Source: an uncultured virus (IMG/VR IMGVR_UViG_3300005613_000038)
Taxonomy: Duplodnaviria > Heunggongvirae > Uroviricota > Caudoviricetes
Virus record (IMG/VR): IMGVR_UViG_3300005613_000038
DNA length: 20,000 nt
Strand: one strand, 5' to 3'
The notes below the pieces were generated by a model. It was not told where the DNA came from, did not search any database, and worked only from the letters and a program-made list of their open reading frames with translations. A program made the position numbers and the translations under genes. Below, in pieces: positions 1,018 through 16,913 of the stretch (position 1 is its first letter; each line of letters opens with the position of its first letter).

Positions 1018-1233
1018 TTATTTACTTAATTTTCCTTCGATAGTTGAAACTCTTTCTCTTATTTTAGAATTACCAATTTCTATCGAATTAACTTTTTCTT
1101 TTATTAATGTAATATCTTCTTGTAAATGTTTCCAATGATTTGTTAGAATTTTCCATCCAAAGAAACAAATTATCCCAAGCTGTAAAACATCTAAACCATA
1201 ATTTTCCCATAAATATAATAAAACTTTAAACAT
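1018..1233 (-). CDS. Small membrane protein, holin-like or XhlA-like (one TM helix plus coiled coil)
   Basis: 71 aa with a hydrophobic segment (VLQLGIICFFGWKIL) followed by a heptad tail (LQEDITLIKEKVNSIE...RERVSTIEGKL). SD GAGGAG lies upstream. Confidence 0.5.
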   Translation of the reverse strand: MFKVLLYLWENYGLDVLQLGIICFFGWKILTNHWKHLQEDITLIKEKVNSIEIGNSKIRERVSTIEGKLSK

Positions 1234-1247
1234 TTAAATACTCCTCA

Positions 1248-1730
1248 TTAACTAATCCAAACATTAACAGACACTCTGTGTCTATGAGCATCAATCTCTG
1301 AAATATTTTGTCCTAATGAAACTCTTGTATTTGTTAAAAAATCCACATTAATCCATCCACCAGCAACTTTAGTTGGTGATTCTGGGTTACTGGGTTTATA
1401 AGTATATGTATAATATCTTAAACCATTATTAATTGTATCTGTCAACCATTTTGCTAAATCTAATCTTTCTCCTTCATTTGTGGCATAAATATCTATTATA
1501 ATCAACTCTCTAGCATCTCTATTATTTGAACCAATTTCAAATCTTGATAAAGTTTCAGATTCATTATATAGAGAAATGCATGGAAGTGTCCAATTATCAT
1601 CATTTTTTCTACCAACTCTAACTGGAATATTAACACCATTAATATCTGTTACAGAATCTGTTATTATTTCTGTATCTAAAAAATCTTTAATACTATTTTC
1701 TAAATTTCGTAAAATGCCCCAAGCTAACAT
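1248..1730 (-). CDS. Tail terminator / tail completion protein
   Basis: 160 aa. 'LPCISL...IIIDIYATNEGERLDLAKWL' fits the pattern of lambda gpU / SPP1 gp17-like terminators. It lies just upstream of the tail tube gene. Confidence 0.65.
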   Translation of the reverse strand: MLAWGILRNLENSIKDFLDTEIITDSVTDINGVNIPVRVGRKNDDNWTLPCISLYNESETLSRFEIGSNNRDARELIIIDIYATNEGERLDLAKWLTDTINNGLRYYTYTYKPSNPESPTKVAGGWINVDFLTNTRVSLGQNISEIDAHRHRVSVNVWIS

Positions 1731-1736
1731 ATATTT

Positions 1737-2195
1737 TTATCCTTTTAATATTCTAGGTATCTCAATTTCCATACGTTGTAATGTCTCGGAAATATAATTC
1801 ATGGCTGGTATGGGTGAATTTGGTTGTATTCCAGAATAACCATCTTCACTTTCAAGCCATCTTCCATCGTGCCACAAACCCTTTGGTAAAAAATGTTGCC
1901 AATTGGCTCCTATTCCTTCACTACCCTTATCAACATGATTCCAATACGGGACTGCACTATCTAACTCGTCTATATCACCAACTGCCCAACCATCTACTAT
2001 TTGATGAGCATAAAATCCATGTGCTAAATTACCAGTTGGATGTTTTGCTTTGTTCATTATTGTTTCACGAATTACAGCTTGACATTCTCTAGCAATTCTT
2101 TCTAAATCTAAATCAGCCACATTGGCAATTCTTTTTAATTCTCGAATAGTAAAATCTTTTCCTACCTTGTCCCTCATAGCTACTCGTATACGCAT
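1737..2195 (-). CDS. Neck / tail-completion protein (HK97 gp10-like, Ne1 type)
   Basis: 152 aa with 'PTGNLA', 'VPYWNHVDKG' and C-terminal 'IPAMNYISETL', resembling HK97 gp10-like motifs (TG.L / Y...V..G / P...Y/F). It sits between head closure and terminator. Confidence 0.6.
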   Translation of the reverse strand: MRIRVAMRDKVGKDFTIRELKRIANVADLDLERIARECQAVIRETIMNKAKHPTGNLAHGFYAHQIVDGWAVGDIDELDSAVPYWNHVDKGSEGIGANWQHFLPKGLWHDGRWLESEDGYSGIQPNSPIPAMNYISETLQRMEIEIPRILKG

Positions 2196-2197
2196 TA

Positions 2198-2599
2198 TTA
2201 TGCTCCTTTACGGAACAAAACAACCCTTGAAAAATCAAAATCACTTTTATATATTTGAACTCTATCACCTAAAGCCTTATTAAATGGAGAATATTCAACA
2301 TCATTATATTTTACTTTTTCACAAATTCTAAATAAATTGGCATCTCTTGATTCAATAACAATTTCAATTGCACCAGAATGAACTAAACCTAATTCTCTAG
2401 CAATTAAACTATCACCTCGTATTTGTCTAACATACGCTTTTACTGGTTCTGGACTTTGATTAGTTTTAGTATATCCAGTATTCCTGTAAGGATCGTAGGA
2501 ATTTCCCTTAGTATTACTAGCTTTCAAATAAACCCAGACGGTCTCTGTGTAATCAGAAAAAATACTATCTTTTAATTTTTGATGTACATTTCTATTCAT
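2198..2599 (-). CDS. Head closure / stopper protein
   Basis: 133 aa, beta-rich, with 'YDPYRNTG' and 'KVKYNDVEY'. Size and position in the neck module match SPP1 gp16-like stoppers. Confidence 0.55.
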   Translation of the reverse strand: MNRNVHQKLKDSIFSDYTETVWVYLKASNTKGNSYDPYRNTGYTKTNQSPEPVKAYVRQIRGDSLIARELGLVHSGAIEIVIESRDANLFRICEKVKYNDVEYSPFNKALGDRVQIYKSDFDFSRVVLFRKGA

Positions 2600-2657
2600 T
2601 ATTTACCTTTATAACGATAATACAATATTAAAAACATTATTAATATTAAAATATTTA

Positions 2658-4631
2658 TTAAGATGGTTCTGTCCATGATAAATCTTCATCTTCAAAATAA
2701 AAATCTTCTTTAAAAATTGTTCTTACTTGACCACTCGAATTTTCAATTTCTATTTCTATATTTATATTATTTAAAAAATTATCTGTTAAATCTTTAGCAC
2801 AAGTAATAATAAATTCACCAGTAGACGCATTTATGATTTCTATTTGTGCATCAGACCCACCACTGTTTGAAGTGGCTAATTTAACTTCATTTTCATCACT
2901 ATCAGTTATTTGACATCTAATTTTATAACTTGTTAAATTCGTGTCAATCACACCATCTAATGTAAAAGTATCACCCAAAATAAATCTATCAGGAGCATCT
3001 ATATTTGCAATTAAATCATCAATTCTAGTTTCTCTACTCATTGAAAAATTTAATTCAGTAGTAGCAATTGTTATTGTGTTAGATTCAGATAAAGAATCAA
3101 AATGGGTCTTACTTAAAGTTGCTGTATATGTTCCTATATCATAAGTAAAAGAAAAAGGACTACTTTGAACAGAAGAATCAGAACTATCTCCCGCATCAAA
3201 TGTAACATCTGGTATATGATTATCTTTTGAATCTTTAATATTAATTGTTATAGTTACTTGATTAACATTAACAACTAAAACATCTTCGGTATAAGCATCA
3301 TAAGAATCAGTGATTTTTAAATATACATTTTTATTTCCAGAATGAGTAAAAGCATTAGAGAATGCTTGAACCGCTTCTAATAGAGTAGAATAAGCTCCCT
3401 GTGAAATTTCAACATAGCTTCCACCTTCTTCTTTCCATTCTGCTTTTACAATATTACCTTCAGCGTCTGAAAATAAACAATCTGAAAAAGGAGTAATAGC
3501 TACATTATAAATCGCTGTTTTATTTAATCCCGCATATACTAATGGAGCAGTATTAACTACATAACCCACCTGGTTTTCATTCAACTCTACTTTTTGTGTT
3601 CCATCAGAAATTAAAAAGACTTTAACATATATTTTATCAGCAGTTGGGTCAAAATCTAACATATGAGCTTCACATTCTGCCTCTGTGTTATAATCGCTTG
3701 CTCCCGCTGTCGCCCAAATAAAACCATTCCAATATAACCAAGTTACACCATCATCAGATAATTGATATCGAACATCACCTTCATTTCCACTTCCTAAAGT
3801 TTCAGAAAAAGCTATAAATTCTTCTATATTTGCAACGCTGTCTCCAAGAGTTTTATAAATAGTTGGAGAATCATCAGTATAAGGGTTTTCTGGAATTGCT
3901 ACTGGAGTATAATTAGCGGTATGCTGAACTGTAGAAAAAACTTGAAAATCATCTATTTTAAATTGAGAATAAGTATAATTACCAGCATCATAATCCGTTC
4001 CAATTCTTAATAATCCAATATTTGAATCTCTTAAACAAGTGCTAATACATGTAGAGCCATTCTGTGCCCCATTTATAAACAAACGTGATGCACCAGTAGT
4101 AAAATCCCAATTAACTTCAATTTCATATTCTGTTCCTGCAACTGGTAAAAATTGACCAAAAAGATGTCCTCCTACAAAATTTCCATCTTTATCATAAACA
4201 TGAAGTCTTAAATAAGCTCCTGAATTAGAATGTCTTAATTGTATTGTATTTTTTATATCATTATGTGCTTTACATACACAAAAAAACCATCTATCAGTTG
4301 TCGGAGCATCTGAATAAGCTGGTGTAATTTTAAATCTAATGCATCCTACTTGTTCACTGTCAGCATTTAAATTTGCATCATAATTTACATATCTTTTATC
4401 ATTGTAAGATAAATCTAATTTACCACCATTAACCGAAGCCCCACCAACAGCAGTTCCAATTAAAACACCTAATCCTCTACTTCCATTTATGTTAGAGTTA
4501 TAATTAGCATAAAATGTTTCATTAGTAGGTGTGAGATTTTTTAATTTAGCTAACCCTGAATCTACTTCAATCTTATCAGAATTATATTGATAATTTGCAG
4601 GTGTTGTATATGGTATTGAAAAATTTGCCAT
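2658..4631 (-). CDS. Multidomain virion surface protein (LamG/ConA-like, PKD/Ig-like and BppU-like domains)
   Basis: 657 aa. LamG-type segment 'YEIEVNWDFTTGASRLFINGAQ...LRIGTD...FKIDDFQVFS'; PKD-like start 'NTAPLVYAGLNKTA'; C-terminal 'GDTFTL...IEIINASTGEFIIT...IEIEIENSSGQVRTI' resembles BppU-type beta-sandwiches. Confidence 0.6.
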   Translation of the reverse strand: MANFSIPYTTPANYQYNSDKIEVDSGLAKLKNLTPTNETFYANYNSNINGSRGLGVLIGTAVGGASVNGGKLDLSYNDKRYVNYDANLNADSEQVGCIRFKITPAYSDAPTTDRWFFCVCKAHNDIKNTIQLRHSNSGAYLRLHVYDKDGNFVGGHLFGQFLPVAGTEYEIEVNWDFTTGASRLFINGAQNGSTCISTCLRDSNIGLLRIGTDYDAGNYTYSQFKIDDFQVFSTVQHTANYTPVAIPENPYTDDSPTIYKTLGDSVANIEEFIAFSETLGSGNEGDVRYQLSDDGVTWLYWNGFIWATAGASDYNTEAECEAHMLDFDPTADKIYVKVFLISDGTQKVELNENQVGYVVNTAPLVYAGLNKTAIYNVAITPFSDCLFSDAEGNIVKAEWKEEGGSYVEISQGAYSTLLEAVQAFSNAFTHSGNKNVYLKITDSYDAYTEDVLVVNVNQVTITINIKDSKDNHIPDVTFDAGDSSDSSVQSSPFSFTYDIGTYTATLSKTHFDSLSESNTITIATTELNFSMSRETRIDDLIANIDAPDRFILGDTFTLDGVIDTNLTSYKIRCQITDSDENEVKLATSNSGGSDAQIEIINASTGEFIITCAKDLTDNFLNNINIEIEIENSSGQVRTIFKEDFYFEDEDLSWTEPS

Positions 4632-4633
4632 TT

Positions 4634-5245
4634 TTAATCCTTAATTTCTAAAAAATCTAAGGAAATAAATCCTCGATTAAATTGAACAAAAACATCATTA
4701 ATTAATTCGCTTTTACTTTTATTTTCGGTAGAACTTATTGTAAAATCTCTTGTTCTTATATCTATATTCTGTGGGTCTATATCAATAGCTGTTATTAACG
4801 CAATCAAATCACCTTCACTTCTTGTTGGATTTACTCCGTTATCGGTAACAACTTCATTATCATCATTCATATAAAACCTTTTATTATATCTCATTTGAGT
4901 AAAACGAGTAAGATTAGATTTTATATAACTTGTAATTTCATTGTCCGACCACTTCTCGTAAAAACTATAAGTAATAATAATTGAATCACCTGAGGTTAAT
5001 GAATAACCTGAACCACTCATATTTAAAGTTACTTTATTAGTATCAGCATTATATGAATATTCTGAAGAAGGTAATTCTGTTCCATTTTGATAAACTTTAA
5101 TTGTGGAAGAACTAACTCTAGAATCACCTAATTTAAAAGAAGCATCAGTTTCATATTCAAAACCATCACGTCCATTAGAATTAAGAATGTCTTTGATCAA
5201 ACCACGTATTAAAGTAATTATTGATGCTGTAGTAACTTGTGCCAT
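4634..5245 (-). CDS. Head-tail adaptor/connector with an inserted beta module
   Basis: 203 aa. Helical N-terminus 'IITLIRGLIKD' and 'WSDNEITSYI' are typical of gp6/gp15-type adaptors. It is the first structural gene after the capsid, HNH and GNAT-like ORFs. Confidence 0.6.
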   Translation of the reverse strand: MAQVTTASIITLIRGLIKDILNSNGRDGFEYETDASFKLGDSRVSSSTIKVYQNGTELPSSEYSYNADTNKVTLNMSGSGYSLTSGDSIIITYSFYEKWSDNEITSYIKSNLTRFTQMRYNKRFYMNDDNEVVTDNGVNPTRSEGDLIALITAIDIDPQNIDIRTRDFTISSTENKSKSELINDVFVQFNRGFISLDFLEIKD

Positions 5246-5247
5246 AA

Positions 5248-5640
5248 TTATTTACCTTTTTTATAATATCTTTTTTCTGGATTATAATATAATAAAAATA
5301 CTGTATCTTGTTTACCGATTATTCTAAATCCATTAGATTTTAAAACAAAACCTAATTTATTCTTTTCATCTATTTTTGCATATATAGATTTTTTATAATT
5401 CCAAAAAAATATTTTTAATAAATTATTTGCTACTCTTTTTGTTTCTGTTACTATCTTTAAATAACAATCTTTATCTTGTTTTTCAACAAAAATTAAACCA
5501 TTTATTTCATTTTCTTCATCTGATATAAACGCTAATTTTTTACATTTAATAAAATCAGAAAATAAATAATTAGATAAATTATGATTATTCGCAAAACATT
5601 GAAAATTTAATTTATCTTTTGATTTCAGTTTTCGTAGCAT
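5248..5640 (-). CDS. Hypothetical protein, possible degenerate GNAT-fold protein
   Basis: 130 aa. 'AFISDEENEINGLIFV' and 'IYAKIDEKN...VLKSNGFRIIG' resemble GNAT beta-strands and motif B, but the acetyl-CoA loop (R/Q-x-x-G-x-G/A) is not clear. Overlaps the HNH 3' end by 16 nt. Confidence 0.4.
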   Translation of the reverse strand: MLRKLKSKDKLNFQCFANNHNLSNYLFSDFIKCKKLAFISDEENEINGLIFVEKQDKDCYLKIVTETKRVANNLLKIFFWNYKKSIYAKIDEKNKLGFVLKSNGFRIIGKQDTVFLLYYNPEKRYYKKGK

Positions 5641-6329
5641 TTGATTCCTTTAATTAAATTTTCTTTGGCCCATAAAGACTGTAAGTTACTGTAATGAAAA
5701 CATTTGCGTTGTTCTTCGGGTTTACTCAAATCAAAACTTGCACAGGGTTTGATATGGTCTATATGCCATTCTTGCATTCCTTTTCCATTGAGACCAGTGC
5801 CATAATTATCCCAGTTCATGCCTTCTGTAAATTGTGATTCTAAGTGTTTACGCAAAAAAGCAATAGTACAGCCAGTTAATTTTTCTGTTGAATCTGATTT
5901 TTTTCTATGTTTAATTGAGTGTGTTATTCTACCTCGTAAATTACACAAAATTTTATATTCAACATCGTTTTTTCTGCGTTTTCGACAATAAGAATTTTTA
6001 TATTCTCTTATGCGTTCTTTATTTTCTTGTCTATATTTTTGATAATATTCTTTATTTTCTGCCCAATCTATTTTATTATATATTTTGCGTTCTTCTATAT
6101 GTTCAAGATAATATTTTCTAGATTGCTTTTTAATTTTATCTTTATTCACATCTCGATATTTTTTGTGACGTTGTTTCTCTTTTTCTATATTATTATCTCT
6201 ATATTTTTTACTGATTTTACTTCTACATTCTTTACACTGAAAACATAAACCATCTTTATTTCGTTTATTTTTACTAAACATAGATAGTTCTTTTTCAATT
6301 TTGCATTTAGAACATTTTTTCGTTTTCAT
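5625..6329 (-). CDS. Free-standing HNH endonuclease (homing-type) with N-terminal Zn finger
   Basis: N-terminal CSKC...CKEC, Lys/Arg-rich helical repeats, and C-terminal 'WHIDHIKPCASFDLSKPEEQRKCFHYSNLQSLWAKENLIKG' carrying the HNH signature DH...N...N. Confidence 0.85.
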   Translation of the reverse strand: MKTKKCSKCKIEKELSMFSKNKRNKDGLCFQCKECRSKISKKYRDNNIEKEKQRHKKYRDVNKDKIKKQSRKYYLEHIEERKIYNKIDWAENKEYYQKYRQENKERIREYKNSYCRKRRKNDVEYKILCNLRGRITHSIKHRKKSDSTEKLTGCTIAFLRKHLESQFTEGMNWDNYGTGLNGKGMQEWHIDHIKPCASFDLSKPEEQRKCFHYSNLQSLWAKENLIKGIKCYEN

Positions 6330-6357
6330 TTTAACCAGACCTTGATATTGTTTTTGG

Positions 6358-6383
6358 GATGAGAGGAAATAAATCCTCTCATC
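6358..6383. other. Perfect 10-bp stem-loop between major capsid and HNH genes
   Basis: GATGAGAGGA-AATAAA-TCCTCTCATC. There is no U-tract after it on the coding (minus) strand. Confidence 0.7.
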
Positions 6384-6399
6384 ATATAAAAACTATTTA

Positions 6400-7365
6400 T
6401 TAAGAATAAATAGAAGCCTTCTTGTACACTGCAAATGCAAACGGATTCACAACTACACTTCCATATTGTTCCATCGCCACGATCGCATAAGCCCATTTGC
6501 GAACTGCTCCAGCCCAAAAACCTGGGCCAGACGCCATTACTACACGTTCTTTCTCACCAGAACCATCAATAGACTGAACACTTCGTCTAACAAAATCAAC
6601 AGGTCTGTTTCCTTCAGAATCACTAACAGCTACCAAAATAGCCTTATCTGATGGCATAACAGTTATTGTTCCACTGTGCGTGTAAGTAAGAGCTTCAATT
6701 CCTATGTGCTTCGCAATACCAGCTTTTGCAAGTGATACTTCACGATTTTTATCCTCTGCATAGTCCATTAAAACTATATCAGTAGTAACATCAGCACCAG
6801 TAATCAAAACTAGATTTTTTCCATATTTTGCAACACTACGAACCATCTCTACAACTTTCTCAAAATCAATAACGCTATCTCCAGAATCATTAGCAAATGT
6901 ATTAGATTTACTTTCAGCACTAGCTATACAAAGAGCAAGAACGTCTTTAATTTCTTTACGATTTAAAGATTCCATTGCATTCTTTGTTTTAATAGCTATT
7001 GGTTCATACTTTGCTTCTAACAATTTTTCAACATAAACATAATACTCATCAGATTCATAAGTTGAAAAAGATAAGTCATTTTCAGAATCAGGTGTAACAT
7101 TTGTCTGTGTAATAGTACCATCTACAACAGTATACACAGATTTTGTCTCAACACCTACTACAAAATATTCATAATCTTCACCTTTTGCTACAGTTGCAGT
7201 TTTAGCAATAGCTGAAATAACTTCTGGAATTGGGAACTCTGCATCATAAGGCATATTAGCTAATCTAGCTAATTCAACAGAATTTCCACTCGCACCAGAT
7301 ACTGCGATTTCCTGTAATTTGGCTTTTAATTCTTCTTGAGCCACTAACAATTTTTTCTCGTCCAT
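6400..7365 (-). CDS. Major capsid protein (probably HK97 fold)
   Basis: 321 aa directly after the protease/scaffold, with a strong SD (GGAGG at 7376-7380). The C-terminus 'YAIVAMEQYGSVVVNPFAFAVY' fits the HK97-fold terminal pattern G..V..P.A. Confidence 0.8.
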   Translation of the reverse strand: MDEKKLLVAQEELKAKLQEIAVSGASGNSVELARLANMPYDAEFPIPEVISAIAKTATVAKGEDYEYFVVGVETKSVYTVVDGTITQTNVTPDSENDLSFSTYESDEYYVYVEKLLEAKYEPIAIKTKNAMESLNRKEIKDVLALCIASAESKSNTFANDSGDSVIDFEKVVEMVRSVAKYGKNLVLITGADVTTDIVLMDYAEDKNREVSLAKAGIAKHIGIEALTYTHSGTITVMPSDKAILVAVSDSEGNRPVDFVRRSVQSIDGSGEKERVVMASGPGFWAGAVRKWAYAIVAMEQYGSVVVNPFAFAVYKKASIYS

Positions 7366-7397
7366 TTTTAAATTTCCTCCTATGGGATTTATAAAAA

Positions 7398-8348
7398 TTA
7401 TTTTTTTCCGTATTTTGATTTAAGATAATTGCCAACTCTTTCATCGGCAGTTTCTTCTTCTTTTTGGTCTACTTCTTCATGACCAGTTTTTAAATCTTCT
7501 TTTTCTTCTTCCTTATCACTAGCAGTTTCAACATCTTTATTTTCTAATTCATGAACACGTTTTTTTAAACGAGCATTCTCTAATTTGCTTTCATCTATCA
7601 AATCTTCATCTGATAAATCTTTTACAAAATCACCAAGCTCTGCTCTAATTTCAACAACTTTTTTCGCATTCTCTTTTAAGAAAGCAATTTCTTTATCTTT
7701 CTCTTCGAGTTGTTTATCATACTCTGCTTTAATTTCTTCCATCTGTGCATAAGTATAAGTAACTTCTCTATTTACTTTCTCTTCTACGACTGTTTTTCCA
7801 TCTCTTTTTACAACTCGTTCAGCTTCAGTTTTCGTTGTTTCTTTTTTAATTTCGTCATCATATGTTTGTTCAATTTTAATTTTATCTTCAGTGACAATTG
7901 TAGTTTTTTCAGACTTAGATTCTTCGTCTTTAACTTCGTCTTCAGAAGCTTTATTTGTTCCTTTTCCAGGTCTATCTTTTCGTCTCATTTCTCCACCACA
8001 TTCAGAACATTTTATATCCTTACAATGTTCAGACGATTTGATAACTTTGCCACAATCTACACATTCACAATCAACTGCTTCTTCTATATCCTTAGACTCT
8101 TCAACTTTTTTATCTTCGGATTTTTTAACTTCTTTGTCATTCTCTTCTTTTTTATCCTTAGACTCTTCAGCTTTTTCTTCAGAAGCATCAGTAGCCTTGG
8201 ATTCAGTCTCATCAACAGCAGAAGCTCGTTTTTGTAATTCAGCTTCCCATTGTTCATCAGACCAGTCTTTGACAGCTTCTTCGCCAAGTTCAGCTATAAC
8301 ATCTTCTCTGAATTTAGCTAATAAAGCCTCTTGAGCCTTTTTATCCAT
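7398..8348 (-). CDS. Nested in-frame scaffold protein (internal start M218, 316 aa)
   Basis: SD AGGAG (8357-8361) lies 8 nt before in-frame ATG 8348, exactly at the protease/coiled-coil boundary (EKGDNT-MDKK). Confidence 0.6.
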   Translation of the reverse strand: MDKKAQEALLAKFREDVIAELGEEAVKDWSDEQWEAELQKRASAVDETESKATDASEEKAEESKDKKEENDKEVKKSEDKKVEESKDIEEAVDCECVDCGKVIKSSEHCKDIKCSECGGEMRRKDRPGKGTNKASEDEVKDEESKSEKTTIVTEDKIKIEQTYDDEIKKETTKTEAERVVKRDGKTVVEEKVNREVTYTYAQMEEIKAEYDKQLEEKDKEIAFLKENAKKVVEIRAELGDFVKDLSDEDLIDESKLENARLKKRVHELENKDVETASDKEEEKEDLKTGHEEVDQKEEETADERVGNYLKSKYGKK

Positions 8349-8999
8349 TGTATTATCTCCTTTTTCTGTTAAAGCTTTTTCTATTAATTCTCCAATTTTT
8401 GTCCATTTTTTAATTATATCTTTTGTGCTAGCATAAACTAATTGTTTATCTTCTTGATTAAAAGTATCTTCAATAATTTTCATGGCGGTCTCGAGAATCC
8501 GAGCATTTGAATATGCTGGTTTTACATTCATTAAAATTCCAACACCCTCCCATTCAATATCATGAAGTCTACGAGTACCATCTGCTAATTTTTCTACTGT
8601 TTTTGGGTCTGTGCATAATTCAAAAGACACAAATAATTTTCCTTTTTTAGCTAATTCTATAGCTTCTTTATACTCTTTCGGAAATAAATTCTTAAAAAAA
8701 GAAACAACTATTTCAATTTCATCATTTTTATTTACCCAAGCGTCAACAATAGCTCCACAACCAGCTAATCTCTCATGATTAATATTAGCCTGTGTGCCTC
8801 TTAATTGTTTAATAGATTTTTCAACCGCTTTTTCAGATAAACGAACACCATTTCCATTAGCATCTTCTATTGGACTATAAATAAAATGAAAAAACCCTAA
8901 ACTTGGATGTGGAGACACCAAGTTTTCTTTTTTTAAAACCTTTTTTAATGTTTTTTCTTCTTTTTTTACTTTTGCTGTTAAAATTATTTTATCATTCAT
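7398..8999 (-). CDS. Prohead maturation protease fused to scaffold protein
   Basis: The N-terminal ~200 aa carry prohead-protease-like motifs (DANGNG, NINHE with candidate catalytic His, FVSFE with candidate catalytic Ser, GVGIL..VKPAY). The C-terminal ~315 aa are E/K-rich coiled coil. It lies between portal and capsid genes. Confidence 0.8.
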   Translation of the reverse strand: MNDKIILTAKVKKEEKTLKKVLKKENLVSPHPSLGFFHFIYSPIEDANGNGVRLSEKAVEKSIKQLRGTQANINHERLAGCGAIVDAWVNKNDEIEIVVSFFKNLFPKEYKEAIELAKKGKLFVSFELCTDPKTVEKLADGTRRLHDIEWEGVGILMNVKPAYSNARILETAMKIIEDTFNQEDKQLVYASTKDIIKKWTKIGELIEKALTEKGDNTMDKKAQEALLAKFREDVIAELGEEAVKDWSDEQWEAELQKRASAVDETESKATDASEEKAEESKDKKEENDKEVKKSEDKKVEESKDIEEAVDCECVDCGKVIKSSEHCKDIKCSECGGEMRRKDRPGKGTNKASEDEVKDEESKSEKTTIVTEDKIKIEQTYDDEIKKETTKTEAERVVKRDGKTVVEEKVNREVTYTYAQMEEIKAEYDKQLEEKDKEIAFLKENAKKVVEIRAELGDFVKDLSDEDLIDESKLENARLKKRVHELENKDVETASDKEEEKEDLKTGHEEVDQKEEETADERVGNYLKSKYGKK

Positions 9000-9018
9000 T
9001 TTTATTATTCCTCAAATA

Positions 9019-10803
9019 TTATTTCTTTACCCATTTATTCTTAACTTTTTTATATTTTAATTTAACATTTCTCCAAGCCGCTTTGCGAGCCTTATCGTCA
9101 TCTTTTGTTTCTTTATACACAGAGTTAAATGTATCTATCCAAATACTTCTTGCTCCTTGTGGTAAATTCTTAATCGAATCTGGATAATTTTCCTTAGTAT
9201 ATGGTGCTTCTATATATCTTTTAGTTTCTTCTGTGGCAAATTCTAACGACGCTTGTTCTCTTAATTTATCATCAAATTCTAATTCAGTACATTTTGCGAA
9301 GCATAAATTAAATGCGTTTTTATAAATTCTCTGCTCATCTTTATTTAATTCATCTCTAATTTCATTTGGTATACTTCTTATTGTTTTCATTGGTTCTATG
9401 ATACATTCAGTCTCTTCACAAGCATTTTTATAGTTATCAGCTTCTGGAGTCCCTGGTTTTTTATCATCTGGAATATTTTCATTATCAGGTGATAAATCTG
9501 CTGGGTTTTGTTCTGTATTTTGAACCACTCTTGGATATAATTTTCTATCTAATTTGTTCTTTTTCTCAAAATCTCTTTCTTTAACTTGTGTTTCATAATC
9601 TAAACTGGTCGTATTTTCTAATGCACTCTTTTGTCCAACTATACCTCTATCATACCAAGAACGAATTAATGTTCTTAATTCATCAGTTAAAAATGTTTTA
9701 ATAATTCCAGATTGAACTTCAACTTTTTCATTAACAGTATATTTTCCAGAATTTTTTATTTTAATTTGTTTTACTATTTCATTTAATAATTCAACATAAT
9801 CTTTAACAGCATCTTCCACTTCTTCAACTAATACCTTTGGATTTAAAATAGCTTCTTCTCTATTAGAAGAAAATCCTCTTAATTCAATCATACCTAAAGA
9901 ATATAAAATATTTTTATCTACTGGTTTTAAAATAGCTTCATCTAACGCTTTTTTATAATCAGGAATTAATTCTTCTAAATTAACATCTCCAGCAAAAGCA
10001 CCAACTAATCCTTTTGCAAATGTTTGTTCATCAAAATTTTTCTTTTGTTCTTGAAATTTTTTCTTAATAGTGTCTAAATCTGTTTGTGATGGTCCCACAC
10101 CTTTTTTAATAGCTTCTTGAGTTCCAACTTTAATTAATAATTGATAAGGAAAAGCGGTTTCAATAATATCAGATTGACGTTCTAAAACTTTAATTTTAAA
10201 CAACGAATGATATAAAGCCCCTTTTCTAACTAAATAAGGAACTGGATATTGATCATACCAATTATTATATGGCTTTCTTATAATAATAGTCGTTGTTTCT
10301 GTGTTTCTTAATCTATTACTTTCTTCTGTATGAGGTTTCCCTAAATAATAAGTATTACTATTTAAATTTCCTTTATTATTTTTAACATAAATACTAGCAC
10401 CATCCATTAAATACATTCTTGTTGGCATCCAAAAACCATCAAATTTATGCCATTTTAAATTCACAACAATAAAAGAACTTTTCCATCTTTCTCTAAAATA
10501 TTGTTCAGTAAATCCTCTTAGTCCACTTGGAATATCTAAATTTAAATCTGAATTAACATTATTTTTCCACGATTCAAAAAGTTTTGTTAAATTCGAATTA
10601 GATGCGTTAAAATTTATATCAACAGTTCCAGCATGTATCATATACTCTAAAATAGTACTAATAAGAGCAGTTTTATCGTTAGATAATAAACTATTAATCT
10701 GTTTCATCTGATTATGAAATGTGTTGGCAACTTTAATCTTACCAGTTGGTGAAAGCATCTGGTCAAAAAGCTTATTATAATATTGTTCGACGACAGTACT
10801 CAT
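9019..10803 (-). CDS. Portal protein with C-terminal tandem ChaB-like domains
   Basis: 594 aa directly after terL, with portal-like size and organisation. The last ~60 aa (PYTKENYPDSIKNLPQGARSIWIDTFNS...ARKAAWRNVKLKY...KWVKK) match the ChaB consensus. Confidence 0.8.
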   Translation of the reverse strand: MSTVVEQYYNKLFDQMLSPTGKIKVANTFHNQMKQINSLLSNDKTALISTILEYMIHAGTVDINFNASNSNLTKLFESWKNNVNSDLNLDIPSGLRGFTEQYFRERWKSSFIVVNLKWHKFDGFWMPTRMYLMDGASIYVKNNKGNLNSNTYYLGKPHTEESNRLRNTETTTIIIRKPYNNWYDQYPVPYLVRKGALYHSLFKIKVLERQSDIIETAFPYQLLIKVGTQEAIKKGVGPSQTDLDTIKKKFQEQKKNFDEQTFAKGLVGAFAGDVNLEELIPDYKKALDEAILKPVDKNILYSLGMIELRGFSSNREEAILNPKVLVEEVEDAVKDYVELLNEIVKQIKIKNSGKYTVNEKVEVQSGIIKTFLTDELRTLIRSWYDRGIVGQKSALENTTSLDYETQVKERDFEKKNKLDRKLYPRVVQNTEQNPADLSPDNENIPDDKKPGTPEADNYKNACEETECIIEPMKTIRSIPNEIRDELNKDEQRIYKNAFNLCFAKCTELEFDDKLREQASLEFATEETKRYIEAPYTKENYPDSIKNLPQGARSIWIDTFNSVYKETKDDDKARKAAWRNVKLKYKKVKNKWVKK

Positions 10804-10820
10804 AATTTATTTCCTTTAGT

Positions 10821-13589
10821 CTATGAGCAAAAAGCTCGTTTAACTTTTTTATATTGTCTTTTTAAAATATTAAATTGATTAAAAAATCTACAAATTGCAA
10901 AAACTTGAAATGCTTGAACTAAATGGTTTGCACCTTTTGAATCAAAAAGTGTTTTTAATTTATTTCTTTTGCATATAATATTTGAAAATTGGTCTTCAAA
11001 TTTTGCGTCTGGTGGTGTTTCAAATTCACCGCTATAAAAAAACTTTTCTAATTCCGAAAACGACCAATGCTCTGTATTAGCTTGTCTCATTATTGGATTG
11101 TTATCGTTATCCATTAATGGTTCGTCGCTCTCATTATCTCTTTCAAAATCAATTTCAATATTTTCATTAAATTTGACTTTTAATAAATATTCAGTAGGAA
11201 TTCCTTTTTCTTTTAATCGGTCAATAATAACACCGCCATCGTGTGTAGCATCAATGGCTATATATGCTCCCTCTAATTTTTCCCAAAGCCAATAAAAAAT
11301 CTCAGCCTGTTCATCTTGAATTAATCTATAAAGAGATATGTTATATGCATATTTAAATTTTTTACCATCAAAGAACACTATAATAATTTCTGTTGGAGCA
11401 GAACCAGTACCAATATCAGCACAAACGTATATTTGGTCAGCACCTGCCATTCTTTCTATATGTAATCTATTCTCAAATCCTTCGTAAGTTTTTCTTCCAA
11501 TTTCAAATGTCTTAATACGACCTGTTTTTCTAAAACTTTGTTCTTTCAATCTTGCTATATCAAAAAAGTTAAATGCACCTTCCAGTGTTTCTGCCTCGAC
11601 GTTAAGCTTATATCCAGCAGAATTTCCTGTAAAATGACATTTGCCGTTTCTTCTTATAAAAAAATTATGATAAGGTTGAACTTGAAGACACCATATCTTG
11701 CCTTCATAATGCATCTTTTTTATTTTATTTAAATGACATTGTGCCCCGACATTCATTGTTCTTCCTTCAGAAATAGTAAACATATTTCTGTCGAGTCGTT
11801 TTCGCAAGCAAGAAAAATGACCAGATTTAAAAATTAATTCTTGTAGGTCATCAGCTAGTTGCGATGATGATGTATAATATATTGTTTGTTTTCCATTATT
11901 TCCATCGCCTTTATTAAAAGCTAACAAAAATATTCGAAGTAATCTTGGCGACCATCGTTTAACATACTCTGGGACTTTTTTATTTTTCGCTCCAACTCCG
12001 CAATGTTTTTTTAAATGTTCGACTAAAGCTTTAGAATTTATCAGAAATGCTTTATTAGAAGAATTATATGTTCCTTTAAAACCCAATCTTTTTAATAAAT
12101 ATTTGATTTCTAATAAATGCTCTTTTTTTGACTGAGCAATAGATATGATATTAGAATAATATCGTTTTCCTGATTTGGTAACTCGTTTCGTCTGAAAAGT
12201 GCATCCTTCTGAGACAAACCATCCTAAAAATTCTGCCCAATCATCACTTTTAAGTTTAAAATTTTTAGCGTTTCGTGAATTAGTTTCAATTTTTATAAAT
12301 TTAGGATTCTCTCCTTTGAATTTAAAAATCGATGGTATCGAAATTTTATTTAAATTTTTAGCAAAAGATGATGTGCAATATTTGCCACGACACGAATAAG
12401 AACAAAAATGTCTTTGATGTTTATTTTTAAAATCTAATTTTTTATGACATTGTAAACAAAATTCTAAATTTTCTGTTTCAATAATATTTTCTAAATGATT
12501 ATTTTTATTCAATAAATCAATTAATGTTTCATAACGAAAACCTTTTTTCCATGTTCGAAAAAGAAGTTTGTGATTATCGGTAATAGCAAAATTTAATTTT
12601 ATTCCGTCATAATAATTTAAATCGCCCTTATAATCATAAATATAAATATGCGATATATTTTCGTATTTTGCCTCTAAAGTGTTCGGATTCAAACTTAATA
12701 CTTTATCACTATATGAAATATTATTATATGTTTTCCAGCCACTATCTGTTAGAACTTCTGTTTTCTCATCAAAACAACTTTTTCCATTGTATTTTTTCGC
12801 TTTTCTTTCTTCAACTTCTTCAGTCCAGTCAGACCTCACATATTGCGGAAGACGCCAAATCCAATTTTTTAATTGTTTATCCTTTAAAATTTTTCCTAAA
12901 GGAGAATCAACATGTAAATCTGGAATACCTGATGGTCTTTCAATATGTCCATAGGACATTTCGGCATCTTCGGCTTGTTCTTGTCCTCTTTTGGTCGAAT
13001 AACTATATTCTTCAGTCCATCTAATATCGTAGTGTTTTCCTTGAAAATGAACTCCTGGATTATCTCCGTCAACTTTTTCATTAACAGATAAAATCAGAGA
13101 ACCATTTTCCCCATTTATTGTTAATGGGTCTCGTTTAACTGTTTTACTTCTTGTTGTTTCTTGTTTTAAATGAAATATTTTACAAAATTTATGAGCTTCG
13201 ATAAACTTACAAATAGGTTCTGTAACCTTTTTTAATTTTTCAAAAGTAACCGATGCAACACATCCCTCTTTACAACCCTTAATAAAGGATAAAACCACAT
13301 CAATAATAAGCCACAAGGACTTGCCGGTGTTCCGAGAACCAATGCTATATAAATCCCCAGCTATCTTTTTTAATGAAAAATTTTCTTCTACTGAAAGAAC
13401 GGGGTCATCGGCAATTAAATATGAATAATTTTGCATTGCAAACTGATAATCCCGTAATACCAATGTCTTACAATTTGGCCAAGTCTGAGGAGAATTTGGA
13501 TTCTCTGGCATTAAACATTCTGTCAACGCTGTGGGATCTGAAAAAAACTCACAGAACTCAATTTCTGATTCTTTTATTTGTGACTGCAT
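10821..13589 (-). CDS. terL: Terminase large subunit containing an intein (537 aa after splicing)
   Basis: Q motif LRDYQ, Walker A GSRNTGKS, Walker B-like IRWTEE, and RNase H-like nuclease motifs YVCADIG and IAIDAT. It lies upstream of the portal. Confidence 0.9.
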   Translation of the reverse strand: MQSQIKESEIEFCEFFSDPTALTECLMPENPNSPQTWPNCKTLVLRDYQFAMQNYSYLIADDPVLSVEENFSLKKIAGDLYSIGSRNTGKSLWLIIDVVLSFIKGCKEGCVASVTFEKLKKVTEPICKFIEAHKFCKIFHLKQETTRSKTVKRDPLTINGENGSLILSVNEKVDGDNPGVHFQGKHYDIRWTEEYSYSTKRGQEQAEDAEMSYGHIERPSGIPDLHVDSPLGKILKDKQLKNWIWRLPQYVRSDWTEEVEERKAKKYNGKSCFDEKTEVLTDSGWKTYNNISYSDKVLSLNPNTLEAKYENISHIYIYDYKGDLNYYDGIKLNFAITDNHKLLFRTWKKGFRYETLIDLLNKNNHLENIIETENLEFCLQCHKKLDFKNKHQRHFCSYSCRGKYCTSSFAKNLNKISIPSIFKFKGENPKFIKIETNSRNAKNFKLKSDDWAEFLGWFVSEGCTFQTKRVTKSGKRYYSNIISIAQSKKEHLLEIKYLLKRLGFKGTYNSSNKAFLINSKALVEHLKKHCGVGAKNKKVPEYVKRWSPRLLRIFLLAFNKGDGNNGKQTIYYTSSSQLADDLQELIFKSGHFSCLRKRLDRNMFTISEGRTMNVGAQCHLNKIKKMHYEGKIWCLQVQPYHNFFIRRNGKCHFTGNSAGYKLNVEAETLEGAFNFFDIARLKEQSFRKTGRIKTFEIGRKTYEGFENRLHIERMAGADQIYVCADIGTGSAPTEIIIVFFDGKKFKYAYNISLYRLIQDEQAEIFYWLWEKLEGAYIAIDATHDGGVIIDRLKEKGIPTEYLLKVKFNENIEIDFERDNESDEPLMDNDNNPIMRQANTEHWSFSELEKFFYSGEFETPPDAKFEDQFSNIICKRNKLKTLFDSKGANHLVQAFQVFAICRFFNQFNILKRQYKKVKRAFCS
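11622..12776 (-). mobile_element. Intein with LAGLIDADG homing endonuclease (385 aa, residues 272-656 of TerL)
   Basis: Block A S|CFDEKTEVLTDSGWK; block B ITDNHKL; LAGLIDADG motifs FLGWFVSEG and FLLAFNKGDG; blocks F/G YEGKIWCLQVQPYHNFFIRRNGKCHFTGN|S. Confidence 0.93.
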
Positions 13590-13591
13590 AT

Positions 13592-13816
13592 TTATCCAAT
13601 TGTTGGTAATCTATAATTTAAAGAACCTCTAGTTGACCAATTTGTTGAATAATCGCTCGCACCTATTTTAAAACGATATTCACTTTGATCAGTTTTTTCT
13701 CTCATAATAGCCCATTCACCATTATGACGAATATGACCATAATAATTATAACCACTTTCTTCTTTGGCTATATCTACAACTTTCATTCCTTCTGTTATAT
13801 TTACATATTTTTGCAT
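13592..13816 (-). CDS. Small hypothetical protein, probably virion-associated
   Basis: 74 aa with SD GGAG and the pattern YYG...W.I.R...NW..R..L.Y. It ends 2 nt before the terL start. Confidence 0.6.
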   Translation of the reverse strand: MQKYVNITEGMKVVDIAKEESGYNYYGHIRHNGEWAIMREKTDQSEYRFKIGASDYSTNWSTRGSLNYRLPTIG

Positions 13817-13841
13817 TATAATTCTCCACTTAATTTTAAAA

Positions 13842-14606
13842 TTATATTGTTGCTCCTAAAATTTTTGAAATATTAGCCTTTTCTACATTCGAAACTTTTC
13901 CAATTAAAGCAGAAGAATATGCTGATGATGACGGAGTAAAATTTGATGTCCATCTAGCAATACCTTTAGAAATTCGAACTTCATCAATTCTTCCTTTTAT
14001 TCTTGATGTTGTATTATAACCACCAAAATTAATAGCATCTAATGCGTTTCCAAGTGTTCCAAAATTACTATTTGTTGTAAGAATTTGACTTTCTCCATCT
14101 ATAAACATGTGTGGATTTGAACCATTACGAACAAAAGCAATGTGATACCAAGTATCAGCAGAAACAGACCAATCGTTAGTCATTATAAAATTCCCACGTT
14201 CTGCTCCAACTCTTCTAGCACCAAAGTGCAATTTATGAGACGTTGATTCTTTTTTAATATAAAGAAAATCAGACCATGTAGGAATTCTATAAGTTAACAT
14301 AAAATATTGTTCACCAGAAATATCAGATAAATTTATCCAAAAATCAATTGTAAAATCTCCATCAGAAAAATACCAATCAGAACTTGCTGGAACTTTTATA
14401 TAATCGCTTCCACTAGAAAATAAACCAGATGCAGTTCCAAATTTCTTTTCTGAAGTATCTAACTGTGCATCGCCATACGCTGTAATAGTATGAGCAGATG
14501 GTGATGAATCAATAAAAGATGTAGACTCATCTGCACCATCACAATGTAATAGTAATTTTGTGTATTCATCACTCTTTGATATATTTAAAATTTTATTAAT
14601 ACTCAT
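13842..14606 (-). CDS. LamG/concanavalin A-like lectin-domain virion protein
   Basis: 'TKLLLHCDG...FIDSS', 'KFGTASGLF', 'DFTIDFWI', 'WYHIAFVRNG', 'FIDG' and 'GRIDEVRISKGIARWTSNFTP' are classic phage LamG_3 motifs. Confidence 0.85.
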   Translation of the reverse strand: MSINKILNISKSDEYTKLLLHCDGADESTSFIDSSPSAHTITAYGDAQLDTSEKKFGTASGLFSSGSDYIKVPASSDWYFSDGDFTIDFWINLSDISGEQYFMLTYRIPTWSDFLYIKKESTSHKLHFGARRVGAERGNFIMTNDWSVSADTWYHIAFVRNGSNPHMFIDGESQILTTNSNFGTLGNALDAINFGGYNTTSRIKGRIDEVRISKGIARWTSNFTPSSSAYSSALIGKVSNVEKANISKILGATI

Positions 14607-14608
14607 GA

Positions 14609-15427
14609 TTAAGATATCTCAACTTGAACTAATTCAGGTTTAAAATATATTCTATTTGCATGAGTTGCTATACCTAAAATTTGCACTATATCACCACTTC
14701 CAGAAGGAGCAGTTTGCGTTATAGCACCGGCCGTTGTATTTAAATAAATAGGACTTCCAACTGTCCAAGACCAAGAATCATCTCTTACAATACCAATTAA
14801 AAGAAAACTACCAGAAGCATCTGTTAAAACACTTTCTAATGCTATTGCTATACAATAAGAAGTGCTTTCTGCATTGGCATCTGCTTTCCACATTTTGCCA
14901 TCGCTTTTAACATAACAAACATTTCCAAAAACCACATTTTCTCCAACAGTAAAATCACCTTTAACACCATGAGCAGTTGTGTTTGAATCTGGTTCTGTGT
15001 CTAAAACTAAAGTATCATCAGTATTTTGTGAGTGTTTTTTATCAACTGCATCTTTAACATTTGCAACAGTAACTTCATTTGCACCACCATCATCTAACTT
15101 TTGATCAGTGCCTTGTGTGTGTGTTTTACTTACAGCATCATCTATTTCTGCTGGTGTAGAACTCGGTTTTCCTGTAATCGCACTCCAATCAACAGAACTC
15201 GCTGAACCGATTTCAAGCCAATCAGTTAAAAGTCCGCTTGAAGAAGCAATACTCCATGTATACATTTTATCTGTGTCAGCAGTAATTCTTACATCATTTT
15301 CTGAATTTCCTGTTATTGGTAGACTAGCATGTGTATCTACTCCATCTTTTAAATGAAAAGCAGATTCAGAATTTATTAATTGTAATTTTCCTGTAAATGG
15401 ATTAACTGTAACACTATATAAAGACAT
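14609..15427 (-). CDS. Head decoration or fibre-like structural protein
   Basis: N-terminal NPFTGKL, fibre-type motif VDWSAITGKPS, two 'DAV.K.H.Q.TD' repeats, and a C-terminal domain (VGENVVFGNVCYVKSDGKMWKADA...WTVGSPIYL...TQTAPSGSGDIVQILGIA) resembling DUF2190/cement-type decoration domains. Confidence 0.55.
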   Translation of the reverse strand: MSLYSVTVNPFTGKLQLINSESAFHLKDGVDTHASLPITGNSENDVRITADTDKMYTWSIASSSGLLTDWLEIGSASSVDWSAITGKPSSTPAEIDDAVSKTHTQGTDQKLDDGGANEVTVANVKDAVDKKHSQNTDDTLVLDTEPDSNTTAHGVKGDFTVGENVVFGNVCYVKSDGKMWKADANAESTSYCIAIALESVLTDASGSFLLIGIVRDDSWSWTVGSPIYLNTTAGAITQTAPSGSGDIVQILGIATHANRIYFKPELVQVEIS

Positions 15428-15429
15428 AA

Positions 15430-16257
15430 TTATTTCCTCTTATCTTTTAAAATATTATCTAAAATTTTTTCTTTTTTTAAATGTGGTGTATTATTTATAA
15501 ATTCTTGAATATCTTTTTCTTCAACTTCATCTATTTCAACAATTTTATGTTCGTTAACTAAAACCCAATTAACATATTTTACTGATGTATGAAATACCCA
15601 AGCATATTGTTCTTTTGTCCAAATATTTGCCTTTACTAATTCTATTCCTCGACGATTATACCAAAATCTACCAGAAAAAAATGGATGCTTTAAAGCTTCA
15701 AAATCTTTAACTCTTCTTCGTAAAAGAATAGGCTCAACATCTTTATTTCCACATTGCTTACACACTATTGGAGCATACAATGTAAATTCATTGCGATTTT
15801 GAGAAATATAAATCTTAAACTTTTTTTCTAACTCTTGTAAAGCTGTTAAATCATTTTGTTCTTTTTTTCCAACAATTCCAGCTTTTTCTTTTAATTGATA
15901 TATAATATCTTCAATTTTATGCAAAGAATCGATTAATTTATCAGGAACAAATTTTGTGTTTTCATCGGCAGTGATTTCAGAAATTTGTTGTTGAATTTTT
16001 AATTTTGTTATTTCTTCAAAAACTAAATCTGCAACATTTTGAACATCTGTCCAATTTTCAAACATATAATTACTTAAATAATCTTCAAAAATTTTCTCTG
16101 CTAATTTTTTATCTTCTTTTGATGTAAATCTTTCAGAAATATTTGTTTGTTTTAACCAAATATTTTTTTGAGCAATTTGTTCTAAAGTTGATTTATCTTT
16201 ATTTTTATTCTGTTTTAAATTTTTAATCCGTCTTATTTCATTCTGTAAATCATTCAT
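15430..16257 (-). CDS. First gene of the late operon; hypothetical protein, possible terminase small subunit or regulator
   Basis: 275 aa with helical/coiled-coil segments, one CKQC motif and an HTH-like C-terminal segment (TKEQYAWVFHTSVKYVNWVL). Function is inferred from position only. Confidence 0.4.
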   Translation of the reverse strand: MNDLQNEIRRIKNLKQNKNKDKSTLEQIAQKNIWLKQTNISERFTSKEDKKLAEKIFEDYLSNYMFENWTDVQNVADLVFEEITKLKIQQQISEITADENTKFVPDKLIDSLHKIEDIIYQLKEKAGIVGKKEQNDLTALQELEKKFKIYISQNRNEFTLYAPIVCKQCGNKDVEPILLRRRVKDFEALKHPFFSGRFWYNRRGIELVKANIWTKEQYAWVFHTSVKYVNWVLVNEHKIVEIDEVEEKDIQEFINNTPHLKKEKILDNILKDKRK

Positions 16258-16274
16258 ATTTTAACCATACCTTT

Positions 16275-16307
16275 AAAATAAAAAATCGACCTCATTTTGA
16301 AGTCGAT
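16275..16307 (-). terminator. Intrinsic terminator immediately upstream of the late operon
   Basis: Minus-strand RNA: (A)UCGACUUCA-AAA-UGAGGUCGA followed by UUUUUUAUUUU. The stem is fully paired only on the minus strand (one G-U pair). Confidence 0.75.
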
Positions 16308-16738
16308 ACAGTTTTAATCTATGCTATTTGTATTAAAATAGACAGAGTGACACCATGCGTGATTATCTTGTGAAAAATTATAAACCATTGGGATAGAACG
16401 ACTTAGCATTCTATCATTTGATAAGCTGTGGTCGAAGTCGAGTGATGCTTCGACCTTTGATGCAGACTGTAAACTGCTCGCTTTTGTTATTTTCTTTCGA
16501 TATGCTATATCGAAACAGTTTTAAGCATTAAATAAATTATTTATTTCTCGAATAAATTTAAATTTATTTGCGTAATAAAGCTCTATATAATAAAGCTTTA
16601 ACTCCTTCTACACACGGTAGATGAGTTATATAACTCTTTTTAAGTCTATTTAAAAAGTTAAAAAGAGAGTAATTTTCATAAATTGTTGATAATAAAGAAC
16701 TTAAATAATAAAAGACAAAGCGATGCCTTTATGTTCTT
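16275..16738 (-). ncRNA. Candidate ~460-nt structured leader or non-coding RNA
   Basis: Bounded by a consensus promoter and an intrinsic terminator, with no ORF in the track. It holds about 11 consecutive inverted repeats, several with G-U pairs that form only on the minus strand. Confidence 0.55.
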
Positions 16739-16913
16739 ACTATAAGTATAACATACCGAAGTGCTGTTTGTCAAGAGAGGAATTTAAGACAGAAAAAATC
16801 GTTAACTTTCTCATAACTCTTTTATTCGCAATGAGTTACTGAAAATTCACGACTATATTAAATTTCTATAAATTATTCTTAATTTGTTTAACATATTGAT
16901 AATAAACAAGTTG
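16679..16913. repeat. Three copies of a 25-bp quasi-palindromic motif flanking the late promoter
   Basis: TAAATTGTTGATAATAAAGAACTTA (16679-16703, +), TAACTCATTGCGAATAAAAGAGTTA (16814-16838, -) and TAACATATTGATAATAAACAAGTTG (16889-16913, +). A fourth weaker copy lies at 19883-19907 (-). Confidence 0.5.
16745..16774 (-). promoter_or_regulatory. Sigma70/SigA-type promoter with extended -10
   Basis: TTGACA (16774-16769), 18-nt spacer ending TGT, TATACT (16750-16745). Confidence 0.8.

Follow-up and report, generated by a model that had tools for sequence, protein, structure and literature searches.

The pyrBI operon of E. coli senses UTP through pausing and uses an ordinary ribosome-binding site. 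In phage lambda, the pR'-6S RNA-tR' arrangement with Q protein consists of a host-type promoter and a short terminated leader transcript, followed by the late genes. We know of no conserved pseudoknot or ORF in lambda 6S and, to our knowledge, the known phage late switches act via proteins on RNA polymerase or promoters. The pyrBI leader holds a short ORF that ends at an intrinsic terminator, where the ribosome blocks the hairpin directly (PMC4824070); the same paper reports for E. coli that termination at tR2 is about 90% with a stop codon 28 bp ahead of it and falls below 10% once the stop is brought to 5 bp. In the tisB mRNA, a pseudoknot and a single-stranded region upstream of a small ORF with a structured start region load 30S/S1 (PMC7708055, partial text). 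The put RNA of HK022 is a structured nascent RNA of about 70 nt downstream of a phage promoter, formed by two adjacent stems with a triplex, that binds RNA polymerase (PMC9378689, partial text). A structured leader RNA, conAn, also controls a long operon in pLS20, its bipartite antitermination requiring an adjacent protein gene (PMC8191782, partial text), and the yxjB attenuator of B. subtilis needs a specific stalling peptide (PMC6851288, partial text).

The phage leader described here sits where the lambda 6S leader sits, and no Q homologue was recognised. It shares with pyrBI a short ORF ending at an intrinsic terminator and the lack of an antiterminator stem, the latter here by prediction only, but it has no SD, carries a covarying pseudoknot and a hairpin before the AUG, and has a virion operon as its target. 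The tisB mRNA encodes a conserved, hydrophobic toxin, its ribosome-binding site is sequestered and it has an antisense RNA, whereas the phage leader peptide is unconstrained and hydrophilic, its ORF is SD-less, and a terminator and an operon lie downstream. The secondary topology of the phage pseudoknot differs from that of put, no adjacent protein gene of the conAn kind was found, and the peptide is not conserved as in yxjB. The closest functional analogue would be pyrBI, supplemented by a loading element of the tisB kind.

The leader and the operon behind it

The window, a stretch of 20,000 nucleotides, holds the virion operon of a tailed phage that is uncultured. GenBank phages include no relative of it: no similar DNA or capsid/terminase protein was found among them beyond chance matches of 25-37 nt. 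The features are as follows.

16889..16901, minus: IHF-consensus-like site upstream of the promoter (putative DNA-level function; match to the assumed consensus)
16745..16774, minus: sigma70-type promoter with extended -10 (sequence pattern; also upstream of the terS-like gene in relatives)
16679..16691, minus: second IHF-consensus-like site in the early leader, overlapping a boxA-like sequence (consensus match)
16530..16738, minus: 5' leader, a variable series of stacked hairpins (length in relatives 26-756 nt; some carry an HNH or other ORF)
16515..16519, minus: pseudoknot 5' strand a, with conserved As before the strand (alignment of relatives)
16495..16515, minus: hairpin P2 in the pseudoknot loop, then a conserved A-rich linker at about 16494-16478 (alignment of relatives)
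16462..16477, minus: hairpin P3 with an invariant G-C closing pair and an 8-nt UU-loop (covariation)
16430..16455, minus: optional hairpin Q, missing from many relatives (folding, relatives)
16392..16415, minus: conserved hairpin R of 8-9 bp, ending 3-5 nt before the AUG, where an SD would be (covariation)
16314..16388, minus: 24-codon leader ORF with a CCA-AUG start and no SD (frame and SD tests)
16306..16314, minus: conserved motif of the type AA(C/G)UGU, located after the stop codon and ahead of the terminator (relatives)
16275..16307, minus: intrinsic terminator, stem 16307-16285 plus U-tail (called in 51/54 distinct ORF-bearing leaders)
15430..16257, minus: first late gene, with a normal SD (gene order, weak structural support)
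1018..15427, minus: co-oriented virion operon with LamG proteins, an intein-bearing large gene, a ChaB-fused probable portal, capsid, HNH and neck genes

The near-consensus sigma70 promoter proposed in the initial annotation was confirmed as TTGACA-18-TATACT with a TG, matching 11/12 consensus positions. Of the 135 promoter-like sites in the window (shuffling predicts 126), it is one of three that carry a TG and match at 11-12/12 positions; two further 11/12 sites, at 2947 and 1592, lack the TG. The U-tailed terminator also stands, 17 nt from the ATG at 16257, and would gate the whole virion operon. The stretch between the two had been called free of ORFs, a description that fails since the conserved 24-codon ORF lies inside it. 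From the eleven stem-loops proposed, eight fold alone at their given coordinates (-3.7 to -10.8 kcal/mol), 16549-16570 is marginal (-1.0 kcal/mol), and 16530-16546 and 16312-16338 do not fold at theirs, the real hairpin for the latter being at about 16346-16318. One relation had been missed: 16477-16462 forms one half of a pseudoknot whose other strand is 16519-16515. The four stems said to gain G-U pairs on the transcribed strand each have one minus-strand G-U and fold worse on the plus strand. Against shuffled sequence the leader folds with z = -4.9 on the minus and -3.5 on the plus strand, and its local-fold z is -6.7, while none of 16 other 465-nt stretches went below -2.4. The leader is thus structured, but the array of about 460 nt does not hold up as a unit: the conserved part covers only about 240 nt in the 3' half, and the hairpins at 16738-16530 are not a conserved entity because the promoter-proximal part varies so widely in length among relatives.

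Several leaders carry long insertions (L001, L011, L014/L015, L003, L036, L032, L054, L071). Those inspected are HNH-like genes that lie upstream of the pseudoknot in L001 and L011 and in the gap from terminator to terS in L014, L003 and L036, not inside the conserved unit, and in L016 (3600-3730) a small hydrophobic ORF with a good SD was seen by eye upstream of the pseudoknot. Hairpin modules recur in differing combinations among the leaders (for example at window 16621 and in L051, L062, L072 and L080), and a GTCGC-loop-GCGTC-type module was seen in both orientations and once in the tail region of the related genome G001. Matches to what we take to be the IHF consensus, in its relaxed form, occur in 25/48 upstream stretches (3.0 expected); the early-leader site is present in 14/51 leaders (1.9 expected) and the boxA-like sequence in 9/51 (1.0 expected), neither being family-wide.

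The first late gene probably encodes the terminase small subunit. The best solved match of its product is the HK97 small terminase (Z 9.0, rmsd 5.2, 111 aligned), below the bar for helical proteins, and several weak viral TerS sequence matches include none at E <= 0.001; this support is weak, and the identity leans on gene order. By position, the intein-bearing gene 10821-13589 would be the terminase large subunit; a terminase profile had no PDB sequence match. The capsid gene 6400-7365 has YonB/HK97-fold look-alikes, and the probable portal (window 9019-10803; G001:86418-88235) has a C-terminal ChaB domain; the portal, terminase, protease and capsid bodies had no Pfam or PHROGs match. The virion gene order is the same in the related genomes G001, G004, G005 and G002. 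The terS genes of these phages have an unusual doubled AAGGT-type ribosome-binding region (in the window, upstream of 16257), and that of the HNH gene 5625-6329 is near-identical to it. A conserved GC-rich hairpin with a U-tail occurs at G001:76226, G004:14245, G005:83029 and G002:62192, in the first three at the end of a small gene after the major tail gene; it is either a terminator or a tail-chaperone frameshift signal.

Other neighbours include a metallophosphoesterase gene directly upstream of the late promoter (16953-17582) and a phage-carried BT1/MFS-family transporter gene (window 18302-19480; G005, L199:8069-9280). In G001 (2605-5017) a metallophosphoesterase gene lies with RNA ligase and HD-domain genes, possibly an RNA repair cluster, and G005 has a Thg1-like gene. 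G001 also carries ribosomal protein bS21 (47682-47936; L168:7682-7936), in a phage that uses ordinary SDs; the gene is absent from the four other records.

A conserved unit of pseudoknot, hairpin and SD-less ORF

At least 100 homologues of the terS-like gene were found among the matches listed, and 82 were aligned and used to fetch loci. Of the 83 usable loci that this gave, 80 came from metagenomes (best 80 of 96) and 2 were viral; a genome collection contributed 1, after 3 short chance matches there were dropped. Locus L007 is identical to the window over this region. The promoter pattern lies within 1300 nt upstream of the gene in 60/83 loci (54 distinct), and 21 of the 23 others have less than 630 nt of upstream DNA. 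G004 and G005 were reached later, via the large terminase, after the element model was built. No host assignment came from bS21, RecA or source names, and the MAG holding L003 had no match to the model.

Across these relatives, the leader keeps the position before the late operon that had been claimed for it, and in 46/54 distinct full leaders, by the core model, the same order precedes the terS-like gene: a pseudoknot, an 8-9 bp hairpin, CC(A/G)-AUG, an ORF of 10-29 codons and an intrinsic terminator. In the pseudoknot, which spans 16519-16462 in the window, the P3 loop (16470-16466) pairs with strand a (16519-16515), and some unpaired bases are invariant. On a sequence-only alignment of 39 distinct cores, 372/390 cells are paired, with 18 different strand pairings, and covariation is 0.80, compared with 0.19 when shuffled and at most 0.125 when the partners are slid; P2 pairs were left uncounted because MAFFT misaligned two subtypes. 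On the terS tree, the two sides of the four variable pairs change together in 38/39 possible cases, whereas for slid partners they do so in 11-15 of 14-31. Since G-U pairs outnumber A-C (9 vs 1 in 351 cells) and the pairs covary, the selection at the RNA level suggested in the initial annotation is supported. Unit folding has a median z of -5.1 in sense and -3.9 in antisense; the sense z is lower in 33/41 units, the sense energy in only 24/41.

A pseudoknot descriptor gave 35 matches in 33 kb of sense leader and none in antisense or in 66 kb of coding sequence, a count that is circular by construction since the descriptor was drawn from the same sequences. The core model has a single match per locus, always sense and in the leader, in 58 of 83 loci searched at E<0.05, of which 39 are training rows. 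It matches 46/54 distinct full leaders; among the eight others, L068, L069, L072 and L076 have variant folds by eye and L002 and L083-L085 have none. Two pattern scans of viral contigs (75 loci; 80 of at least 120 stretches), with patterns that cover only some strand variants, gave a best E of 0.007, three terminator-like hairpins and no further true element. In the unrelated viral contigs L142, L097 and L159, near 1500, a terminator loop could pair with upstream AAAACCGA, probably by chance. Judged by eye, pairing of the pre-terminator motif with loop a' into a second pseudoknot fails across variants.

Hairpin R covaries at 0.60 vs 0.23, in 32 rows of which some are out of register; a tRNA-Ala-like G3-U70 is present in just two of these hairpins. 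The distance from P3 to the AUG ranges over 25-129 nt and all three frames equally, which does not agree with the fixed pseudoknot-to-codon spacing of a dicistrovirus-type IRES. The AUG opens a frame of 10-29 codons in 54 distinct loci and has CCA or CCG 0-1 nt before it in 51/54 (ACA in 3/54, CCG in 6/54), although its conservation is partly built in because the search pattern contained ATG; the frame test is not affected. With the three loci lacking a terminator call dropped, the frame runs without a stop to 15 nt or less from the terminator in 46/51 leaders (10.5 +/- 2.9 expected by shuffling), and with one leader per terS cluster in 26/30 (6.4 expected) and 16/19 (3.8 expected), while the other two frames reach a stop at a median of 8 and 6 codons, compared with 22 for this frame. 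The stops of all 51 lie in a zone that begins 23 nt ahead of the stem and extends 13 nt into it, with 33 of them at 0-12 nt; in the window the stop is 6 nt before the stem and 8 nt before its first G-C pair. An SD precedes the leader ORF in 4/54 leaders and terS in 47/54. The peptides are mostly hydrophilic (median GRAVY -0.51) and show no sign of selection (pN/pS 0.87 in a small sample of 15 independent pairs); they have no shared codon run, the top enrichment being Tyr and Asn at about twofold. The whole unit is present in G004, with an 18-codon ORF, and in G005, with a 29-codon ORF and a new strand pairing that the core model missed.

Readings of the unit

We consider the unit, with a probability of roughly 0.45, to be a leader-ORF attenuator of the pyrBI type, where SD-less translation, assisted by the RNA structure, would block the terminator and so open the late operon. 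As deduced from consensus and conservation, host RNA polymerase would start at the strong promoter, and the nascent RNA folds the covarying pseudoknot and hairpin R. By default, polymerase would halt at the terminator, giving an RNA of about 460 nt. Alternatively, a ribosome would initiate at the SD-less AUG, with the pseudoknot and A-rich linker as putative loading site and hairpin R in the place of the SD duplex, run through 10-29 codons and halt at a stop few nt before the stem, covering its 5' arm. Under the distance rule of E. coli, which may not be that of the host, this would allow read-through into terS and the virion genes, and control would act on initiation or on ribosome-polymerase coupling. 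The more specific proposal, that the pseudoknot recruits 30S, hairpin R replaces the SD duplex and minigene initiation times the late operon instead of Q, a sigma factor or a polymerase, is doubtful. The structure, the order of parts, the open frame, the missing SD and the unconstrained peptide are observed, while transcription, translation, read-through and timing are inferred.

The late genes most simply need read-through because the terminator lies 17 nt from the ATG and no strict promoter was found inside the late regions of G001, G004 and G005. In addition, 125 G001 and 132 G004/G005 proteins (Pfam) and 74 G001 proteins (PHROGs), many of them unannotated, included no recognisable Q, sigma factor or RNA polymerase. 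The lambda 6S/Q or put-like reading of the initial annotation may still hold, but it leaves the conserved SD-less ORF ending at the terminator unaccounted for. No conserved antiterminator pairing was predicted in the leader (0.344 vs 0.351), which fits pyrBI-type and not trp-type control. Coupling-type attenuation is favoured because read-through would most simply be needed, antiterminator stem and late factor are not seen, and stops keep near the terminator; given the pN/pS, the act of translation and not the peptide would matter. A trp/his-type amino-acid attenuator was rejected, with no regulatory codon run and no 2:3 antiterminator, as was a ribosome-arrest peptide attenuator, with no conserved peptide motif. 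Phage bS21 was rejected as general trigger, being present in 1/5 records (1/2 complete), G001, and absent from the element-bearing G004 and G005.

Several observations count against the attenuator. Five of 51 stops lie 16-23 nt from the stem; L068/L069, one lineage, keep a pseudoknot-like fold, hairpin R and terminator without an AUG; and the same operon runs without the element in L002/G002, L081 and L083-L085. In the distant relative G002 (40201, minus; the L002 leader) a consensus promoter points back into the late leader, which suggests another control design. The attenuator also leaves unexplained the AA(C/G)UGU motif, kept beside the terminator whether in a loop or not. Its weakest link is the coupling of the host. 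In hosts with runaway transcription, such as B. subtilis, terminators work unblocked close to stops (PMC7858274, partial text), and purine-rich genes mark such hosts (PMC13323073, partial text); G001 coding strands are 57% purine and the capsid resembles YonB. Four of six other terminator-like hairpins in the four genomes overlap a stop codon, and a further one sits 13 nt downstream of the G001 capsid gene; these few may include frameshift hairpins. Even so, pausing can still permit leader-peptide control of termination in B. subtilis (PMC6851288, partial text).

Among the alternatives, factor-mediated antitermination survives best, although it is unlikely. The pseudoknot (about 65 nt) or the pre-terminator motif would bind RNA polymerase or a phage protein in a put-, nut- or conAn-like manner, the ORF being secondary and serving, for example, to shield the leader from Rho. 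A size like that of put (about 70 nt; PMC9378689, partial text), the invariant unpaired bases, the constant motif, the boxA-like site in 9/51 leaders, the existence of internal late terminators and the AUG-less L068/L069 all fit, and several unannotated genes are common to G001, G004 and G005. However, no known antiterminator was recognised among the proteins of these genomes and the candidate trans-factors they share had no family match; a stop that tracks the terminator in 46/51 leaders would go unexplained, and a protein-free put-like RNA would give no delay.

The leader may instead yield a stand-alone small transcript that engages ribosomes, as decoy or small-peptide message, with an ordinary terminator in an uncoupled host, the late genes being reached by leak or from an unrecognised late promoter. 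This we regard as quite unlikely. The transcript would have its own promoter and terminator, a stop near a terminator is normal in uncoupled hosts (PMC7858274, partial text), the genes are purine-rich and HNH genes are tolerated on both sides; but the peptide is unconstrained and mostly hydrophilic, the terminator is close to the ATG, the late regions of G001, G004 and G005 have no strict promoter, and the element was never found away from terS in the loci, the four genomes or 155 viral-contig pattern matches. A related candidate, a type I toxin mRNA of the tisB kind, was rejected: the pseudoknot is present, the conserved hydrophobic peptide with sequestered SD is not.

We regard it as improbable that the pseudoknot acts as a ligand-sensing aptamer, or that it serves as a processing signal in which a hairpin-N-CCA tRNA mimic is cut to leave a leaderless AUG. 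Its compactness, the conserved A-rich strand and the frequent CCA or CCG before the AUG would suit such roles, but no Rfam riboswitch or ribozyme was found at threshold, no alternative pairing with the terminator was seen, ACA and CCG replace CCA in some leaders, and ARAGORN found no tRNA/tmRNA in the window or G001. Finally, it is very improbable that the stretch acts at the DNA level, as a cos/pac packaging signal with IHF sites or as an origin, with the hairpins as by-products: the site adjoins terS, IHF-like sites are enriched, one hairpin module occurs in both orientations and the other strand also folds strongly (median z -3.9), but loop-to-strand covariation, the excess of G-U over A-C, the lower sense z and the conserved reading frame are RNA-level traits, and 67 contig 5' ends are spread with no shared position. 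A packaging site near the promoter may nevertheless co-exist with the RNA element.

Family status and significance

That the leader belongs to no known RNA family, as first proposed, agrees with Rfam 15. The window has no match at E<=1, the leader alone has 7 matches at E 0.9-6, all far below threshold, and 20 related loci have 2 chance matches and G001 none; no family in it (ROOL, GOLLD, OLE, riboswitches and ribozymes where curated) reached its gathering threshold. No description of the element was found in the literature, where the virus RNA catalogue PMC10690425, covered here for 3 of its 6 supplements, may still hold an entry. Phage-encoded bS21, found in G001, is known (PMC9723584, partial text).

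The element is a real, uncatalogued family of cis-elements, and would be a variant of leader-ORF attenuation if the mechanism holds. Whatever that mechanism, it is a phage RNA family of about 240 nt that covaries strongly, and its roughly 50 natural variants can guide mutagenesis. An initiation element that covaries and lacks an SD, if true, would offer a compact and testable case of structure-driven initiation in bacteria, and a ribosome-operated switch, if true, would be a new way for a phage to time the making of its virions.
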